Shown: piece after piece, positions 1-23,002 of the stretch | Layout: every line of letters starts with the position of its first letter | How positions within the stretch are numbered: position 1 is the stretch's first letter | Virus record (IMG/VR): IMGVR_UViG_3300036766_001333 | Location: 1-64,000 of that record | Source of the DNA: a virus | Length of the DNA stretch: 64,000 bases | Reading direction: 5' to 3' (one strand) | Program-made: the position numbers and the translations under genes | The notes under the pieces: generated by a model | Told to the model about the DNA's origin: nothing | What the model saw: the letters and a program-made list of their open reading frames with translations, nothing else | Database searches by the model: none

Positions 1-598
1 CTTCTACCGAAATATTGATTTTCATTTCTGGAATTCTAAGATGATTAGCCAAATTGTGCTTTTTAGCATCTTTTGATGTAAGATACCAATCTGCATGTCC
101 ACGTTCATGAATTATGTCAAGAAAATAGCTTTCTTTCTGGCCACAATTTTTAGAAAGTAATTTAAAAACAAGGGTATTTAGCCTATCAGTTTCATCAGCA
201 TCGGCCTTCAAATCCTCTACTTTACCATATTGAAAGCTAGAAACTTCATGAATCATTAGGGTTGCGTTCGGGGCAATAAAGCGAAATCCTTCTTTGCCAA
301 AGCCAAAAAGTATAGCTCCTGCACTCATTGCTTTTGATTCACAAACAGTAGCAACAGGCAATTTTGAATTTTGGATTTCAGCATACAGGGATAAAAGACT
401 GTAAACTGATCCTCCATAACTGTCAACTACAATAGGGATTACGTTTTGGCCTGTTTCATGGGCTTTTGCCATGTTTTCGGCAAATTTTTCTACCGTTTCT
501 TCATTAAATTTATTAATTCTTATGACAACTGGCGGCTCAATTAAATCGGCATAATTCTTAATTTTAATTTTTGGATCAACATTTAAATATTTAAGCAC
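1..598 (-). CDS. clpP: ATP-dependent Clp protease proteolytic subunit (3' end beyond window edge)
   Basis: Not in ORF track. Hand translation from GTG at 598 (GGAG upstream) gives ...IVVDSYGGSV...KAMSAGAIL...NATLMIHEVSS, matching ClpP S-x-GG, catalytic Ser (AMSAG) and MIH motifs. Frame open to window edge. Confidence 0.9.
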   Translation of the reverse strand, partial: MLKYLNVDPKIKIKNYADLIEPPVVIRINKFNEETVEKFAENMAKAHETGQNVIPIVVDSYGGSVYSLLSLYAEIQNSKLPVATVCESKAMSAGAILFGFGKEGFRFIAPNATLMIHEVSSFQYGKVEDLKADADETDRLNTLVFKLLSKNCGQKESYFLDIIHERGHADWYLTSKDAKKHNLANHLRIPEMKINISVE

Positions 599-893: not shown

Positions 894-1481
894 ATGATAG
901 ATGCAACAAAAATCACAAACTATAATCTTGATACTTATGGATTACAGCAGCATATTCTTTTCTGGATTTGTGCATCAGGGAAAAACGGGGTTACTGCTGC
1001 TAAATCCCTTCATGGTCTATTACAAATACTAAAATATAAATGTAATATTGATACATTCCCTATAGTTAATGATTTGTCTCCTTTTGAAATGATTAAGCAG
1101 CAAAAAAGACATCTTGTTTATTTCATGAAGGCAGCAGGGATCGGATGTTATAATTTAAAATCAAAGACTTTTTTGGATTTAGCTTCTAGCAATCTTGATT
1201 TAAAGAATTGTACTTCTATTGATTTAGAGAACATTAAAGGAATTGGTCCCAAGACAGCGAAGTGTTTTATCATTCACACTCGGCGTGATGCTAAGTGTTC
1301 TGGTTTGGATAGACATATATTAACATTCTTAAGAGATAAGGGGTATAATGCTCCCCTTAGTACGCCTTCAAGTAAAAAAGAATATGGTCGTCTTGAACAA
1401 ATATTTCTAAATTTAGTACCTAAAGATAAAACAATAGCTGAGTTTGATTTGAGTATATGGCTAGAATACAGAAGTAAGTAA
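894..1481 (+). CDS. HhH-superfamily DNA glycosylase/AP lyase (Ogg-like)
   Basis: LENIKGIGPKTA helix-hairpin-helix with catalytic Lys, followed by LDRHI (catalytic Asp), as in 8-oxoguanine glycosylases. Confidence 0.75.
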   Translation: MIDATKITNYNLDTYGLQQHILFWICASGKNGVTAAKSLHGLLQILKYKCNIDTFPIVNDLSPFEMIKQQKRHLVYFMKAAGIGCYNLKSKTFLDLASSNLDLKNCTSIDLENIKGIGPKTAKCFIIHTRRDAKCSGLDRHILTFLRDKGYNAPLSTPSSKKEYGRLEQIFLNLVPKDKTIAEFDLSIWLEYRSK

Positions 1482-1498
1482 TAGATCAATCATGAAAT

Positions 1499-1819
1499 TT
1501 AGTTTTTACAATTTTTCTCATTTTCTAGCCATTCTAGAAACTTTCTATACACTACACTATATGATTTTCCCCATATAATTCCATGAAAATCATATTCTTT
1601 TTCCCAGGATAAAACATGACTTATTTCATGAAGCAGCACGTCGATGGCATAATATTCAGGTAATTTTTTTTCAATTCTTATTAAAAACTTATTATTTTTA
1701 AATCTACAATCCCCATCAATTCCATTAGGAAGAGATGCTCTTTTTACTTGAATATTTAACAAAGGATTTAATGTTGATTTAAGAAACTTTGAAAGTTTAT
1801 AGAATCTAATAAGCTTCAT
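1499..1819 (-). CDS. small zincin metallopeptidase (SprT/ImmA-like)
   Basis: LLHEISH HExxH motif with downstream HG..W. Confidence 0.65.
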   Translation of the reverse strand: MKLIRFYKLSKFLKSTLNPLLNIQVKRASLPNGIDGDCRFKNNKFLIRIEKKLPEYYAIDVLLHEISHVLSWEKEYDFHGIIWGKSYSVVYRKFLEWLENEKNCKN

Positions 1820-1828
1820 TAATTATAT

Positions 1829-2486
1829 CTAGATTGTTTGATTTGTTCTTTTTACAACATCATGCACAATTACCGTTTGAAGATTAGGCCATTGAGTTTT
1901 TAAATTTTTACCAAGTTGCACAAATTGATTTATATGATCCTCTCTATCATCCCAAATTTCCAGGATTTTTATATTATTATTCATTAAATGACTGTCAATA
2001 GCAAAGGCTTTATATGAAAAAGTATCATTGCCTTTAGGATATCCTGATTTTTTTACCAAATTGAGATGATTTTTAAAAAAATAATCATCTGCGGTAATAC
2101 CATAAGCTTGTAAAATTTCTTTTACTCTAGGTTCCATTTTACTGTGCCGTCCAGTCATAACAACAACATGTGTAGTTGGATCAGCCTTATCTCTTTGTAA
2201 AGCTTGAAACACTTCCTGATTTAATTTGTCGGGAGTCGGTTCAAAAATAGGAGATCGCAAAGTCTCGTCTCTCCCATACCAGCCAACTCTCCTAAATTTA
2301 GGATCGAATCCATGTTTTTCTGCTGTTTCTTTATCTGGAATTTTCCAAGGCTTTCCCCCAGCTTCATATTTTGGAATTCCTTCTTCGGGAGTTGGAGTAT
2401 TAACCAAAGTGTTGTCGAAGTCAAAAAATAACCAGGCGAGTTTTGCCTGACCCCACTTCCTCAAAGAATTTTTTAAAGTTTAACAT
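1829..2486 (-). CDS. HAD-family phosphatase, Swiss-Army-knife RNA-repair type; +1 frameshift near 2423
   Basis: FDFDNTL (motif I), VMTGR (motif II), IWDDREDH (motif IV). ATG at 2486 gives MLNFKKFFEEVGSGKTRLVIF-TGA, which joins DFDNT after a +1 shift. The ORF track starts at TTG 2464 instead. Confidence 0.75.
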
Positions 2487-2489
2487 ATA

Positions 2490-3167
2490 TTAGTTACGTT
2501 TTCTATTTAAATTTCCTTCATATAGAATCCCATTTATTGTCCGTGTAGTTGCCCACATTGGACGCAAATTATTTAACGCATTAACTATTTTTACATTTGT
2601 ATTGGGGTCAAACGTGTGAACTTGACAAATATGATCGACATGCCATTCTTTTCCATAATTCTCCCAAGACATTTCAGGAGTCCACAGTTTTTCTAAATGC
2701 ACTTTTAGTTCCTCTGCATTATATCCTAACATTTCATATGTAGAATTGATTTTGGCTTGCTTTAACTTAAGCAAAGCAGTCCTTAATAAACTTCTCCATA
2801 AAACAATATGTTTATTTTTGTTTTTCCAATTTATTGATGCAGTATTTCTTTTAAGTTTAAATTCAGGAGATTCTTTGTTATCTTTATAAAATTTATTGGC
2901 TCTTGTCTTAATTTTTTCAGCGTTGTTGGCATAATGTTTTGTTTTATATTCCTTTACTATTTGTGGATTTTTGACAGCCCTTTCCCTAGACCTTTCTATG
3001 GTTATTTCCTTGTTTTCTAAATACCACTCATGCTGTCGAACTTTAATTTGGGGTTTATTAGCCTTAAGTTTTTTACATTCTTTGCAATAAGAATGAAATC
3101 CTTTGCCTCGTCTATGAAATTCAGTAACAGGTTTTACAAACTTACAAGAAGCACATGATTTTTCCAT
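2490..3167 (-). CDS. HNH homing endonuclease with N-terminal Zn finger
   Basis: CxxC...CKEC N-terminus; MSWENYGKEWHVDHI...NNLRPMWA...N HNH core; sits between HAD and CCA genes. Confidence 0.8.
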   Translation of the reverse strand: MEKSCASCKFVKPVTEFHRRGKGFHSYCKECKKLKANKPQIKVRQHEWYLENKEITIERSRERAVKNPQIVKEYKTKHYANNAEKIKTRANKFYKDNKESPEFKLKRNTASINWKNKNKHIVLWRSLLRTALLKLKQAKINSTYEMLGYNAEELKVHLEKLWTPEMSWENYGKEWHVDHICQVHTFDPNTNVKIVNALNNLRPMWATTRTINGILYEGNLNRKRN

Positions 3168-3188
3168 GTACTAATTTAGTAATTTTCC

Positions 3189-4748
3189 TTAAAAGAAAGA
3201 TTCATTTGGCTTCCTGAGATTATTTTTGAATTTTTCAGTTTCAATATGCCTTATAGCATCACCAAATTCTACTCCTTGTGGAGTTTTTCCAAGATGCGAT
3301 ACTATATCAGGATTAACAACCCTATTGCCAAATTCATCTTTGACATAACCTTTTGTGTCCATCTTGTGATCTGCAAATGTATCAACTGCATCTTTATTAT
3401 GCTTATTCATTTCGCCCCATTGTTTTACCAAGCTAGGCACGAGACTAGTACGATCCATTCCAGATTTCATATCATAAAATCCACCTTTACCACGTTCCTC
3501 TTTCATGCCGTGGAAAAACTCATCATCGGCTTTTCCATGCTTAGAGAACCAGCGATGAAGTTTAATTAAATGCACAATGTCATTAATTTCATTATTTTGC
3601 CAAGTACCTTTAGCCAACACTTCTTTTACATCTTCTGGTTCATTGAATCTTAAAATCCAAGCGATAGCTAATCTTTTTTCTTTTTTGTCGCTAAAGTCCT
3701 TATTCGTGTCCAGTTTGAAAATCATATCTGGAAATACTCTGTTTAACAAACCTAGTTGTTTATAAAATTTAATATATTTGACAGCATCAATATCTGGATG
3801 CTCTAGTCCTTTAATAAATTCATCTCTAATACGTTCTTCACTAACTGATTTAAGGTCTTTAACTTCTTCAATAGCCTTTTTATATTCATCTGGAATCTTT
3901 TCCTCTTTGCCATATCTTGCTAAAAATCTAACATATCTCAAAGCTCTAAGTTGATCTTCTTCGAGGCGATCTTTTGGATTGCCGATAAATCTGACTTGTC
4001 CTTGTTTTAAGTGATGGATGCCGCCATGTGGATCAAGCAATTTATTGTTAGGACCATCTGGATTTGTCAATGGAATATACATTGCATTGATTGTCAAATC
4101 TCTTCTAGATGAATCTTCTTCTAAAGAAGGTGTAAATTCCATTTTATCTGGAGTCCTTCCATCACCTGATTTGGAATCTTTTCTAAAAGTAGCAATTTCA
4201 AATTCTCGACCCTTGCTACCAGGAGAAAGCTTGATTCTAGCACCAATTACGAATTCTCTTCCAGACCGATCCCAACCTTTTGCATAAAATATCTTACTTT
4301 TATCACCACCTTCTTCAAGTTTATCATATTTTTTATCTAGAGTCATATGTTTGCCAGTTTGCGGTTTGACCTCAGTAAACCCAGCGAACTTAAGAATTGA
4401 TCTAATTTCATCTGGAGTTGCTTCAGTAGCAAGGTCATAATCTTTTGGTTCTTGATTATTTAAATGTGCAACAGTTGCGCCACCTACTAACCTTAAGGTT
4501 TTCTTTTTCATCTTAGGTTCAACTTCACCACTTTTATCCATAGTTGTAGTATGATTAGGATAACCAACTGGTATATTTGGACTATCTTCAAAGGCTTTTA
4601 TTAAAATTCTCAAATCAGGATGATTCTGCCTGTCTACAATGAAAGGCTTATATGGAGAATCATCACTTAATTTAAGTTCTGATGCCACATGCTTTTCTTC
4701 TTTTTCTTCGCCTTCTCTAAACATCAAATATTCTGAAAAATTTTTCAT
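3189..4748 (-). CDS. cca: class II tRNA nucleotidyltransferase (CCA-adding enzyme)
   Basis: LVGG...KDYDLAT (DxD), EIATFR, RRDLTINAM, EDQLRALR (EDxxR), VSEERIRDE. Confidence 0.9.
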   Translation of the reverse strand: MKNFSEYLMFREGEEKEEKHVASELKLSDDSPYKPFIVDRQNHPDLRILIKAFEDSPNIPVGYPNHTTTMDKSGEVEPKMKKKTLRLVGGATVAHLNNQEPKDYDLATEATPDEIRSILKFAGFTEVKPQTGKHMTLDKKYDKLEEGGDKSKIFYAKGWDRSGREFVIGARIKLSPGSKGREFEIATFRKDSKSGDGRTPDKMEFTPSLEEDSSRRDLTINAMYIPLTNPDGPNNKLLDPHGGIHHLKQGQVRFIGNPKDRLEEDQLRALRYVRFLARYGKEEKIPDEYKKAIEEVKDLKSVSEERIRDEFIKGLEHPDIDAVKYIKFYKQLGLLNRVFPDMIFKLDTNKDFSDKKEKRLAIAWILRFNEPEDVKEVLAKGTWQNNEINDIVHLIKLHRWFSKHGKADDEFFHGMKEERGKGGFYDMKSGMDRTSLVPSLVKQWGEMNKHNKDAVDTFADHKMDTKGYVKDEFGNRVVNPDIVSHLGKTPQGVEFGDAIRHIETEKFKNNLRKPNESFF

Positions 4749-17378: not shown

Positions 17379-19550
17379 ATGAGACAAGAAATTGATAGAA
17401 TTTGGAATATTATAAGTAGACATGAAAAAAAATTGCGTGGCATGAATGTTAACAAAGCCATCAATAAATTTTTCAAAAGAAAACGAGGATATTTTAGACA
17501 ACAAGCTCCCCGTGGAGTTCATTTGGCTCTTTGCGTCGATACTCGTGATCCTTGGAAACAAAACAGAGTTAGATTTTTTAGCCCTGCTTTTAATCTTCCT
17601 AAAAATGCAATAGCTACTGTTGCTACTGCTCCTACTAGTCCTCAAAGTGTTACTACTAAAATAAGCCAATTAAGATGGGCATCTCCAATATCATCAATGG
17701 GAGGATTTGATGATTGTGGGATGACATGGGTTCCGCCTCCAGGATCAACTGTTTGCTTATTATTTCAAAATGGCGACCCAGAGACAGCTTTCTATATTGG
17801 CACAACTTGGCATAGAGATAGAGGGCCAGTAAATAATCATAACTGGAACTACGACATTGATGAATACCAAAAAATATTCGAAGGTCATAGGCATGGTTAT
17901 ATGGTAGGAAAAAATGATGAATCTCAAGTTCTACCACCATTTAATACAGATAATTATCAAGGGTATGACCTAGATACTAACTCTGATGTTAACTTAGTGC
18001 CAGATGCCCAAACCAAAACAACATGGCCGCACCAATACGGATGGAAAACTCCTGAAAAACATATGGTTCGTATGGATGATGGCGATCCAAAATGCAATCG
18101 TCGGTGGAAGCGATTTGAAATAATGTCAAGTATGGGTCATTATTTTTTAATGAAAGACGATCCGTATCATCATTGTGGAGAATGGACTAATCCAAATTGT
18201 AAAATATCTTATATAGACATTGTTCCTAGTGTGTGTATTGGAAGTTTTATATCAACTTCCTATATCAGTCCAGTATCTTCAAATATAGTTATCAGTATAA
18301 CGGATTTGCCTTATGTTTGCCTACAAGGACCAGAAAATTGTCCTACCTCACCAGAAGGATCAATAACTCCTGTAGAAGATGAGTATCTAGGAACGGAATA
18401 TCTTTGTCCAGGATTTTCTCCACCTTCAACTATTTCGACAATGCCCGTTGATTGTTTGGGAGTATTAAGAGGATTAACTGATTTTTGTTTTTCTTTCAAT
18501 AATCAAGGCAAGAATAGATATCACAAGCATAAGCAAGAATGTTTTCCATTTTTATGTAATAAATGTGCTTTACTTCAATCAGGAATGCAACTTCTATCTA
18601 GATCAGGTGCCACATTAGTTATGGACGATTCGGTAGAAGAACCTAGAGAAAGGCCAGAATGGGAAAGAGCACTAGAAGAATTTGACATGGATGGATGCAC
18701 TGGAAACTTTAAAGGAAGAACTTTTTTGAGATCAGCTACAGGTCATTACATAGAATTAAATGATACAGAAGATCAACCAAAAGTTAGAAGTATCAGAAAT
18801 GGTATAAACATTGTTACTGCAAGTGGCAACGAAATATGTTTAAACGATCATTCAAAGCCATGCTGTATTGCTGGAGAGCTTAGAGGAATTCATATAAAGA
18901 GTACAGCAAACCATACTCTCGACATGGTTGATGATACCAACAGACAATGTAGTGATGAAAGAAATGGTTGTTCAAAAACTGGCCCCTATGCAAAAAAGGC
19001 ATTTGTAAGACTTAGAAGCGGGTATGGAATAGCAGTAACATTAAGTGATTCTAATGACCAAACAAAAACAGATCAGCAGTATCTTCAATTAATGGCACCT
19101 CAAAAAGATAACCTTGTAAGAGGTTCACATATATTCCACATGCAAGAAAGACCTAGTGGGCCTGGGCAAATTTTTCTCCGAGCAGGCGGAGATTTCATAG
19201 TTCAAACTTATGATAGCATGGTAGAAGTAGTAGGAGATGAAAAAGATAATCCTGCTAATAAACTTGAATTTGTATCTAGGTCGAAAATAGTAAGTGTAAA
19301 AGATGTTTATTATAATAAGGCAAAAACTCATGTTTTTTGGGCAGATGATTATATATTATTATTAGCGGGCAAAGATTGCGGGCCATATGAAGGAGATGAT
19401 AAGGGGACGCCATGTGTGTTTCCAGTAGTTGTTGCCGTGCAGCCAATACCAGAGTTTGTTACTGCTGCAACAGGCATGAAAGCTTCCACACACGTTTTTG
19501 CAAGTTCTTTGCCATCAATACCATGTGAAGGCATAGCTAGTGATTTATAA
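17379..19550 (+). CDS. gp5/VgrG-like baseplate central spike
   Basis: OB-fold signature DPWKQNRVRF...WASP...VPPPGSTV.LLFQNGDP..AFYIG; repeated S.GH...DD beta-solenoid segments. Confidence 0.8.
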   Translation: MRQEIDRIWNIISRHEKKLRGMNVNKAINKFFKRKRGYFRQQAPRGVHLALCVDTRDPWKQNRVRFFSPAFNLPKNAIATVATAPTSPQSVTTKISQLRWASPISSMGGFDDCGMTWVPPPGSTVCLLFQNGDPETAFYIGTTWHRDRGPVNNHNWNYDIDEYQKIFEGHRHGYMVGKNDESQVLPPFNTDNYQGYDLDTNSDVNLVPDAQTKTTWPHQYGWKTPEKHMVRMDDGDPKCNRRWKRFEIMSSMGHYFLMKDDPYHHCGEWTNPNCKISYIDIVPSVCIGSFISTSYISPVSSNIVISITDLPYVCLQGPENCPTSPEGSITPVEDEYLGTEYLCPGFSPPSTISTMPVDCLGVLRGLTDFCFSFNNQGKNRYHKHKQECFPFLCNKCALLQSGMQLLSRSGATLVMDDSVEEPRERPEWERALEEFDMDGCTGNFKGRTFLRSATGHYIELNDTEDQPKVRSIRNGINIVTASGNEICLNDHSKPCCIAGELRGIHIKSTANHTLDMVDDTNRQCSDERNGCSKTGPYAKKAFVRLRSGYGIAVTLSDSNDQTKTDQQYLQLMAPQKDNLVRGSHIFHMQERPSGPGQIFLRAGGDFIVQTYDSMVEVVGDEKDNPANKLEFVSRSKIVSVKDVYYNKAKTHVFWADDYILLLAGKDCGPYEGDDKGTPCVFPVVVAVQPIPEFVTAATGMKASTHVFASSLPSIPCEGIASDL

Positions 19551-21429: not shown

Positions 21430-23002
21430 AAATTGTCCATTTGATGTAACGCCTTATAAAAATGCTAAAGATGACAGAAATTCTGTTATTTATAATTTAA
21501 ACTACACTAGTCAAGATTATTGGTCGTTAAAGTCTAGAATGTTAGAAATGATAAAAGAAAAATTTTCAAATGATTTTAATGATATAACTGAAGCCTCATT
21601 AGGACTTATGATAGTTGAATTATATGCATTCGTTGCGGATTTATTATCATTTAAAATAGATCAAATAGCTAATGAAGTGTACATAGATTCGGTAACTGAA
21701 CTAGAAAATGCATTCAGAATATCAAAGTTAGTAGGATTTAAACCATTGCCTCCAGTACCAGCCAGAACAATGTTGGTTGCTAAAATAAACAATCCATATT
21801 CTCACGACATTATAATTAAAACTCCAATTTTATTAGGATACAATTTAGGAAGTGCTAATAATGACTTTACATTTGAGGCATATGCTGCTGACTCTAATGG
21901 CAATCCTATTTTTAATGAAGATATTATTATACTTTCTGGGCAGCTATCAAACAGATCAATAGTTGCAATTGAGGGACGCACTTTTACTTCTAATTTTGAA
22001 TCGACAGGCGAGCCGTGGCAACAGCATGAGATTTCAAGAGATTCAGTATTATTTAACTCTATCAGAATAATAGTCGATGGTCAACATTGGGATAAAGTAG
22101 AATACTTCTCAAACAGTCCTAAACCAGAATTCAGAATAGAATACAAATATGATTATAAACCTACAATTCTTTTGGGAGATGGATTAACAGGTCTTGTGCC
22201 CATGAAGGGATCAAAAGTATTTGTTTCTTATAGAACTGGTACGGGATCAAATGGCAATATAATTACAGGAGCAATTGACCAAAATGTTCATGTTAATGTA
22301 GATGGTCTAGATTTTCCAGTAATAGTAAATTTCAATAATTACACAAAAGGATTGTATGGATATGGCGGTGACACTATTGAAGACATTAGAAGAAAACTCC
22401 CTACATATCTTAAAACACAAGATAGGGCAGTTACAGGTGCCGATTACAAAGCTATAATAGAGCAATTTAGTACTCAAAACAATGGCACGGTGGGTAAAGC
22501 AACTGTATCTCTAAGAAATCATGGATGTTCTGGAAATATTATTGATGTTCACATATTAGCCAGAAATAACAATGAATTAGTTGAGCCTAATGAAAATCTT
22601 AAAAATGAATTAATTCAAGAACTTGAAACTAAAAAAATGTTTACAGATTTTATTTGTATAAAATCTGGAACCATATCCTTAGTAGATGTTCACATAGATA
22701 TATTTTTAGACCGATCTCTAAAGAAATATGAGGATAGTATCAAAGAAAAAACAGATAGGAGAATAAAGCATTTCTTTTCAATATATAATTGGGAATTTGG
22801 TCAGACTTTAAGAGAAGCAGATATTATTAAAATTTTAGCCGATATAAAAGAAATTAAAAGAATAGAGTTGAATTTTACTACTGCTAAAAACTTAGAATCA
22901 GGAGATGGTCACAGTCAAACAATAACCGCACATCATAATGAAATTATAAGGCCGGATAACATTAATATAGCTTTTAATTATCAAAATATTGGAGAAACAT
23001 AA
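21422..23002 (+). CDS. baseplate wedge subunit (gp6 / P2 gpJ-like)
   Basis: YTSQDY.SLK, D.LSFKID..ANE.YI, LGDG..G..P, YRTG.G..GN, QDRAVT..DY. Confidence 0.9.
   Translation: MSENCPFDVTPYKNAKDDRNSVIYNLNYTSQDYWSLKSRMLEMIKEKFSNDFNDITEASLGLMIVELYAFVADLLSFKIDQIANEVYIDSVTELENAFRISKLVGFKPLPPVPARTMLVAKINNPYSHDIIIKTPILLGYNLGSANNDFTFEAYAADSNGNPIFNEDIIILSGQLSNRSIVAIEGRTFTSNFESTGEPWQQHEISRDSVLFNSIRIIVDGQHWDKVEYFSNSPKPEFRIEYKYDYKPTILLGDGLTGLVPMKGSKVFVSYRTGTGSNGNIITGAIDQNVHVNVDGLDFPVIVNFNNYTKGLYGYGGDTIEDIRRKLPTYLKTQDRAVTGADYKAIIEQFSTQNNGTVGKATVSLRNHGCSGNIIDVHILARNNNELVEPNENLKNELIQELETKKMFTDFICIKSGTISLVDVHIDIFLDRSLKKYEDSIKEKTDRRIKHFFSIYNWEFGQTLREADIIKILADIKEIKRIELNFTTAKNLESGDGHSQTITAHHNEIIRPDNINIAFNYQNIGET

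Follow-up and report, generated by a model that had tools for sequence, protein, structure and literature searches.

A prfB-like TTT-TGA-C site in a phage HAD phosphatase gene is probably the product of a one-base insertion

INTRODUCTION

In the release factor gene prfB, a short leader ORF is joined to the main body by a +1 shift at a P-site codon that re-pairs in the +1 frame and is followed immediately by an in-frame UGA and then C, GAC being the post-shift codon in Escherichia coli prfB. Because the prfB product itself reads UGA, the shift closes a feedback loop. A near-invariant Shine-Dalgarno (SD)-like AGGGGG lies 3 bases 5' of the slippery codon (PMC12421855). The slip site UUU_U is a rare natural prfB variant (PMC12421855, PMC5009743), present as TTTTTGA in 21 genomes of one survey, all of which keep the SD-like element too (PMC12421855); in E. 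coli it is far less efficient than CUU_U (PMC5009743). A different kind of slippage is "corrective" frameshifting, in which a low-level compensatory slip yields a little active product (Atkins et al. 2016, PMC5009743), and such "corrective" or "savior" indels are exemplified by the G-run of herpesvirus thymidine kinase (PMC5009743). As for the enzyme considered here, the closest described proteins are the phosphatase domain of T4 Pnkp and the HAD_SAK_1 RNA-repair phosphatases, which carry the DxDxT motif I.

Here we describe a HAD phosphatase gene of a phage that is interrupted by a heptamer resembling the prfB site. The DNA analyzed, hereafter the window, is the first 64 kb (positions 1 to 64,000) of a 77,880-base IMG/VR virus contig (IMGVR_UViG_3300036766_001333; CheckV completeness, approximately 15%), with a G+C content of 33% and a coding share of 93%; it is most closely related to unannotated "huge phage" records and to IMG/VR contigs of 340 to 640 kb. 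A preceding sequence-only reading of this DNA had offered two accounts of the site, a programmed prfB-like shift that ties enzyme output to translation stress or a single-base insertion. Our results favor the insertion, since relatives are continuous, a stimulator is missing, and the heptamer arises automatically, and they speak against the programmed shift.

RESULTS

On the minus strand, a leader ORF (2421-2486) consisting of an ATG at 2486-2484 and 20 further codons encodes the peptide MLNFKKFFEEVGSGKTRLVIF (21 codons) and ends at a TGA (2423-2421). As the sequence-only reading had described, the leader runs into ATT TTT TGA C in the 0-frame, with C 2420 directly 3' of the stop. When one T is skipped, so that TGAC is read as one step, the frame continues as ...TRLVIF-DFDNTLVNTPTPEEGIPK... 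into a 218-residue product with the predicted junction peptide LVIFDFDNTLVNTPTPEEGIPK; RLVIF is thereby joined to DFDNTL, HAD motif I, again as had been proposed, and an intact 197-residue HAD phosphatase body follows in the +1 frame (1829-2422 with its stop, minus strand). The T residues at the junction form a T6 run (2423-2428, minus strand; A6 on the plus strand), and T5 at this place would give a continuous ORF. The heptamer TTT-TGA-C (2420-2426, minus strand) is formally a +1 slip site, with a P-site Phe codon whose tRNA-Phe can pair again with UUU after moving one base (TTT then T at 2426-2423), an in-frame UGA at 2423-2421, and C 2420 on its 3' side. The +1 frame is open from a TTG at 2464 to the stop at 1829-1831, encoding 211 amino acids. 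This TTG (2462-2464, minus strand), the HAD frame's sole start codon ahead of motif I, would give MRKWGQAKLAWLFF-DFDNTL; it is situated inside the translated leader ORF.

Stop-codon reassignment was rejected as an explanation of the split: reading through the TGA yields merely LRQHFG before a TAA, TGA, although a minority stop here, ends 8 of the 61 long ORFs, and no tRNA genes were found in the window. When both strands of the window were scanned for pairs of a leader ORF and a long ORF in a shifted frame, no other genuine split gene appeared; a candidate at 17658 was antisense to a real gene, and another at 23000 consisted of two adjacent genes.

The ORF in the +1 frame matches PF10307 (HAD_SAK_1) with 48.6 bits against a cut-off of 25.6, as well as the polynucleotide kinase/phosphatase families phrog_415 (1.7e-6) and phrog_505. 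Motif I (hhhhDxDxT) is present with its nucleophile Asp, as DFDNT after RLVIF in the read-through product or after WLFF in the TTG frame. The residues that are invariant in the family, DxDxT and the columns MTGR, DT..K, and DDR..H of our alignment (A1), are all kept in the window protein; the latter columns probably correspond to HAD motifs II to IV (Thr/Ser, Lys, acidic), so that the downstream catalytic motifs would be intact. A PDB sequence search returned no significant relative. The matches above mark the gene as a Pnkp-type HAD phosphatase conserved in phages and as a predicted RNA-repair enzyme. Like T4 Pnkp and the HAD_SAK_1 phosphatases, it has the DxDxT motif I, an above-threshold PF10307 match, and phage "polynucleotide kinase" PHROGs, and it adjoins a tRNA CCA-adding enzyme; unlike T4 Pnkp, it stands alone without a kinase domain and carries an extra N-terminal leader.

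The neighborhood of the gene is conserved as well. In the window, a tRNA nucleotidyltransferase (CCA-adding enzyme; 3189-4748), the HAD gene, and a small SprT-like protein with a weak PF10263 match (1499-1819) form a same-strand module on the minus strand (1499-4748), in which the CCA-adding enzyme is the conserved upstream partner and the SprT-like gene the conserved downstream partner. The same module is present at L001, L003-L026, L083, and other related loci; among the 161 HAD loci, the CCA enzyme occurs in 65 and the SprT-like gene in 73. The module fits a candidate phage tRNA/RNA 3'-end repair cassette, a role read from its gene content. Between the CCA enzyme and the HAD gene, the window carries an endonuclease VII/HNH-type ORF of 225 amino acids (2490-3167, minus strand; phrog_1035, 6.6e-10), whose TAA (2492-2490) stands 3 nt before the HAD ATG. 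An endonuclease at this position was found only in the window and in one distant relative, L133 (1947-2492, 38% identity), and it therefore looks like a sporadic mobile insertion, with the appearance of a free-standing homing endonuclease that would target the CCA-HAD junction. Approximately 900 bases downstream of the module and on the same strand, a ClpP/S49-type head maturation protease (2-598, minus strand; phrog_94, 1.5e-21) runs off the start of the window.

Several lines of evidence identify the leader as part of this gene. It resembles the native N terminus of the HAD family (M.LNF+.F.E...G..+h.IF), and the closer protein relatives open with M.LNF(K/R).F.E...G..(K/R)h.IF-DFD; a homolog in LR756511 that is 56% identical is a single ORF beginning MNLNFRQYVEGLTDHYKRVVVFDFDGTL. 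Identity to relatives is 33 to 57% in the leader and 48 to 78% in the body. With a family HMM built from 16 relatives, the window being left out, the read-through product scored 350.6 bits, compared to 319.6 for the body alone and 323.9 for the TTG-start product; thus, the frame-0 leader adds approximately 31 bits, whereas the N terminus in the TTG frame adds approximately 4. Altogether, the homology argues that the leader is real coding sequence and the native N terminus of the HAD gene.

The sequence-only reading had suggested looking for the split frame in homologous phage genes and had held that continuity in close relatives would speak against a programmed shift. Protein relatives at 33 to 75% identity were continuous in all eight cases. 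Related loci were collected by alignment-driven scans (80 from IMG/VR and 80 from metagenomes), and an HMM search placed the family match within a single stop-to-stop segment in 161 of 161 phage and metagenome loci. Coverage extended over both motif I and the body in 139 of these (110 distinct sequences; approximately 93 clusters at 90% identity), and none of the 139 was split. Of the remaining 22, 4 are truncated at a contig end, and the other 18 are distant members in which motif I still falls within the matched segment. Consistent with these counts, tblastn of the related loci gave none with high-scoring segment pairs in more than one plus-strand frame, and a single pair per locus for the best query. 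Among the loci with a recognized motif pair, every one has an in-frame ATG or GTG upstream except L007, which has TTG, and the window is the only case with non-homologous in-frame upstream sequence. Scanning IMG/VR with a single protein turned up no close relatives, and scanning it for the exact junction, with either T5 or T6, turned up no sibling contig. The continuity that had been expected to weigh against programming is thus observed in spirit, in relatives of which the nearest is 75% identical to the window HAD, the comparison set holding no strain-level relatives.

How the heptamer could arise is suggested by the codons at the equivalent site in relatives, AUU-UUC-GAU, GUA-UUU-GAU, AUA-UUU-GAC, and AUU-AUU-GAC, all of which are in frame. 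An ancestral ATT-TTT-GAC containing a T5 run would become ATT-TTT-TGA-C by the gain of one T, presumably through recent replication slippage at the codon that immediately precedes the catalytic Asp (motif I). In that case, the Asp codon of DxD would have supplied the stop and its 3' C, and the codon of the conserved hydrophobic residue preceding this Asp would have supplied the "slippery" Phe codon. Because a T added before GAC yields UUU-UGA-C automatically, the likeness to prfB needs no selection, as far as these sequences tell. On balance, we consider it probable that the split reflects a real and recent one-T slippage insertion that leaves the gene mostly off, with possible low-level rescue. 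The absence of further damage in both leader and body fits a very recent event, and it equally fits selection on a shift-dependent product.

We then consider whether T6 is genuine. A Logan re-assembly of run X1 holds a 7,869-base contig (word depth 9.4) that matches window 1400-3600 without a single difference or gap and includes T6. Since X1 is the probable source run and the two assemblies may share reads, the agreement means that T6 is independent of the assembler but not of the reads; as minor variants are hidden in contigs, a T5/T6 mixture or a systematic read error may go unseen. An artefact, in which the phage would really carry T5 and an uninterrupted gene of 218 codons, would involve a single-base length change in a homopolymer known as T6 from one genome only, in assemblies that possibly come from the same reads at a modest depth of approximately 9x. 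Against it, two different assemblers agree on T6, and 186 of the 200 A/T runs of at least 6 in the window, including runs of 7 and 8, lie in the 61 long ORFs and leave them intact; homopolymer errors are therefore no feature of this assembly, and assembly error behind T6 is unlikely. Moreover, minimal contigs of 151 nt suggest short-read data, in which consensus errors at 6-base homopolymers are rare. We regard a sequencing or assembly artefact as unlikely. Run X2, a second sediment metagenome from a different study, contains near-identical fragments of the phage, none of which crosses 2214-2879. These fragments, at window 1400-1482, 1914-2209, 2901-3051, and 3562-3600 and at depths of 2 to 4, are nearly all identical or near-identical to the phage; one piece (1914-2064) has 10 differences and points to a co-occurring variant.

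A programmed, selected +1 shift at UUU-UGA-C would have tRNA-Phe slip during slow termination at UGA-C and thereby set the level of leader-bearing phosphatase. The site does share with prfB a P-site codon that re-pairs perfectly in the +1 frame (UUU_U), an immediate in-frame UGA followed by C, which is a weak stop context, a short leader ORF before the main body, and GAC as the post-shift codon; the heptamer itself serves, though rarely, as a slip site in natural prfB genes, T6 is present in two assemblies, leader and body are both undamaged, and TGA ends only a minority of the long ORFs of this phage. Unlike prfB, however, the site lacks AGGGGG 3 nt upstream, although this element is hyper-conserved even in the TTTTTGA variants. 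The slippery codon is preceded by CGCCUGGUUAU, in which, as the sequence-only reading had correctly remarked, no internal SD of the prfB type is evident, the nearest SD-like purine run being GAGGAAG approximately 35 nt upstream. The split, moreover, occurs in no homolog (0 of the 139 junction-covering relatives), UUU_U shifts poorly in E. coli (PMC5009743), and inserting a single T ahead of the Asp codon accounts for the window motif. The product is a HAD phosphatase rather than a release factor; it does not read UGA, and hence there is no feedback loop and no autoregulatory logic to sustain the proposed tie between enzyme output and translation stress.

Nor does RNA structure set the site apart. 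The 121 nt around it fold with z scores of -2.9 and -2.4, compared to -3.5 to +1.3 for the same region in 12 intact relatives, which form unrelated structures. As intact relatives fold equally well and differently, the fold is not tied to a shift, and on the same grounds a predicted long-range helix and small hairpin 5' of the site were ruled out as stimulators. An Rfam search of 1800-3200 found nothing. In the intact homologs L083, L084, L088, and L007, the 121 nt surrounding the HAD start, motif I included, fold better than shuffled sequence (z scores of -2.1 to -3.5), with dissimilar structures. Altogether, the continuity of relatives, the lack of an SD-like stimulator, and the absence of frameshift-specific structure render a programmed prfB-like shift quite improbable. 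A narrower version is very unlikely, namely a lineage-specific selected +1 shift in a huge phage that is SD independent, takes host UGA termination efficiency as its sensor, and sets the ratio of leader-tagged (shifted, possibly capsid-targeted), untagged (TTG 2464), and no phosphatase.

It could also be that the insertion is real and that function is kept mainly by initiation at TTG 2464, giving an untagged enzyme that begins MRKWGQAKLAWLFF-DFD, with the old leader reduced to an overlapping upstream ORF. By chance, the +1 frame upstream of the site encodes a hydrophobic LAWLFF, which might serve as strand beta-1 in place of RLVIF, and many family members begin only 6 to 8 residues before DFD (e.g., MKLDIF in L107 and MKFLHVF in L149), implying that the enzyme can fold without the leader and that a TTG start is tolerable. 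A TTG start is also found in the clade, in the L007 homolog (2489-3091), whose apparent TTG follows a strong GAGGAG by 5 nt; by contrast, TTG 2464 of the window has neither an SD nor another signal before it. This codon is, in addition, base-paired in the predicted fold, lies inside the translated leader frame, whose ATG follows the upstream gene's stop by 3 nt, and opens an N terminus with only the small HMM gain given above. Rescue chiefly through TTG 2464 is accordingly as doubtful to us as a programmed shift. Finally, a heterogeneous or phase-variable tract, with T5 (ON) and T6 (OFF) genomes coexisting and the assemblies giving the majority form, is highly improbable: homopolymer slippage is reversible, T6 rests on contigs, from which minor variants are dropped, and the HAD gene is part of an accessory repair module, which the phage may be able to do without in certain conditions, but tracts of 5 to 6 bases are short for the high-rate switching of contingency loci, and the IMG/VR scan gave no T5 sibling contig.

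DISCUSSION

The reading that we favor, a one-T insertion in the codon before the catalytic Asp, would cut the native start and the 21-residue N-terminal leader off the enzyme body. Because ATG 2486 sits 3 nt past the stop of the upstream gene, the leader is probably translated by coupling; most ribosomes that start there would terminate at the UGA and release a 21-amino-acid peptide, such that the allele would be largely off. Given perfect re-pairing and the weak UGA-C stop, a small fraction of ribosomes may slip +1 without selection and make a little full-length, leader-bearing enzyme in the manner of "corrective" frameshifting, while weak initiation at TTG 2464 may supply some untagged enzyme with an altered N terminus. 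We infer this mutational origin, and any leaky expression, from the sequence of the locus, the homology of its leader, the continuity of relatives, the lack of stimulators, and the presence of T6 in two assemblies.

On this reading, the event is an ordinary homopolymer indel. It resembles the herpesvirus thymidine kinase case in that a homopolymer indel in a viral enzyme gene falls at a site that could permit low-frequency slip-back and thus a little active product (PMC5009743); unlike the G-run there, the tract here is U6 with a stop.

The leader itself may have a role beyond the fold of the enzyme. Its N-terminal pattern, M..F..[FYW]h..E, a post-hoc pattern set after seeing examples, occurs at 5 of 64 ORF starts in addition to the HAD leader, compared to 0 of 334 internal Met positions. 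It is carried by otherwise unrelated ORFs starting at 4748(-), 6642(+), 41958(+), 42801(+), and 60874(-), along with 2486(-), and it is also seen on close HAD and CCA homologs of other phages. The tag may be a capsid-targeting or protease-processed leader, for which the pattern is suggestive only. If the leader is a targeting tag, the frameshift would uncouple the tag from the enzyme.

For annotation, the best description of the gene is a frameshifted phosphatase of the HAD/Pnkp type whose native start lies at 2486, in place of the 211-amino-acid TTG-start protein that public protein sets carry. Were the programmed reading true, an accessory enzyme of a phage would be recoded by a +1 shift that works independently of an SD. 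More generally, gaining one T in front of a GAY Asp codon automatically produces a mimic of the prfB heptamer, and sites of this kind should therefore not be called programmed unless conservation supports it.
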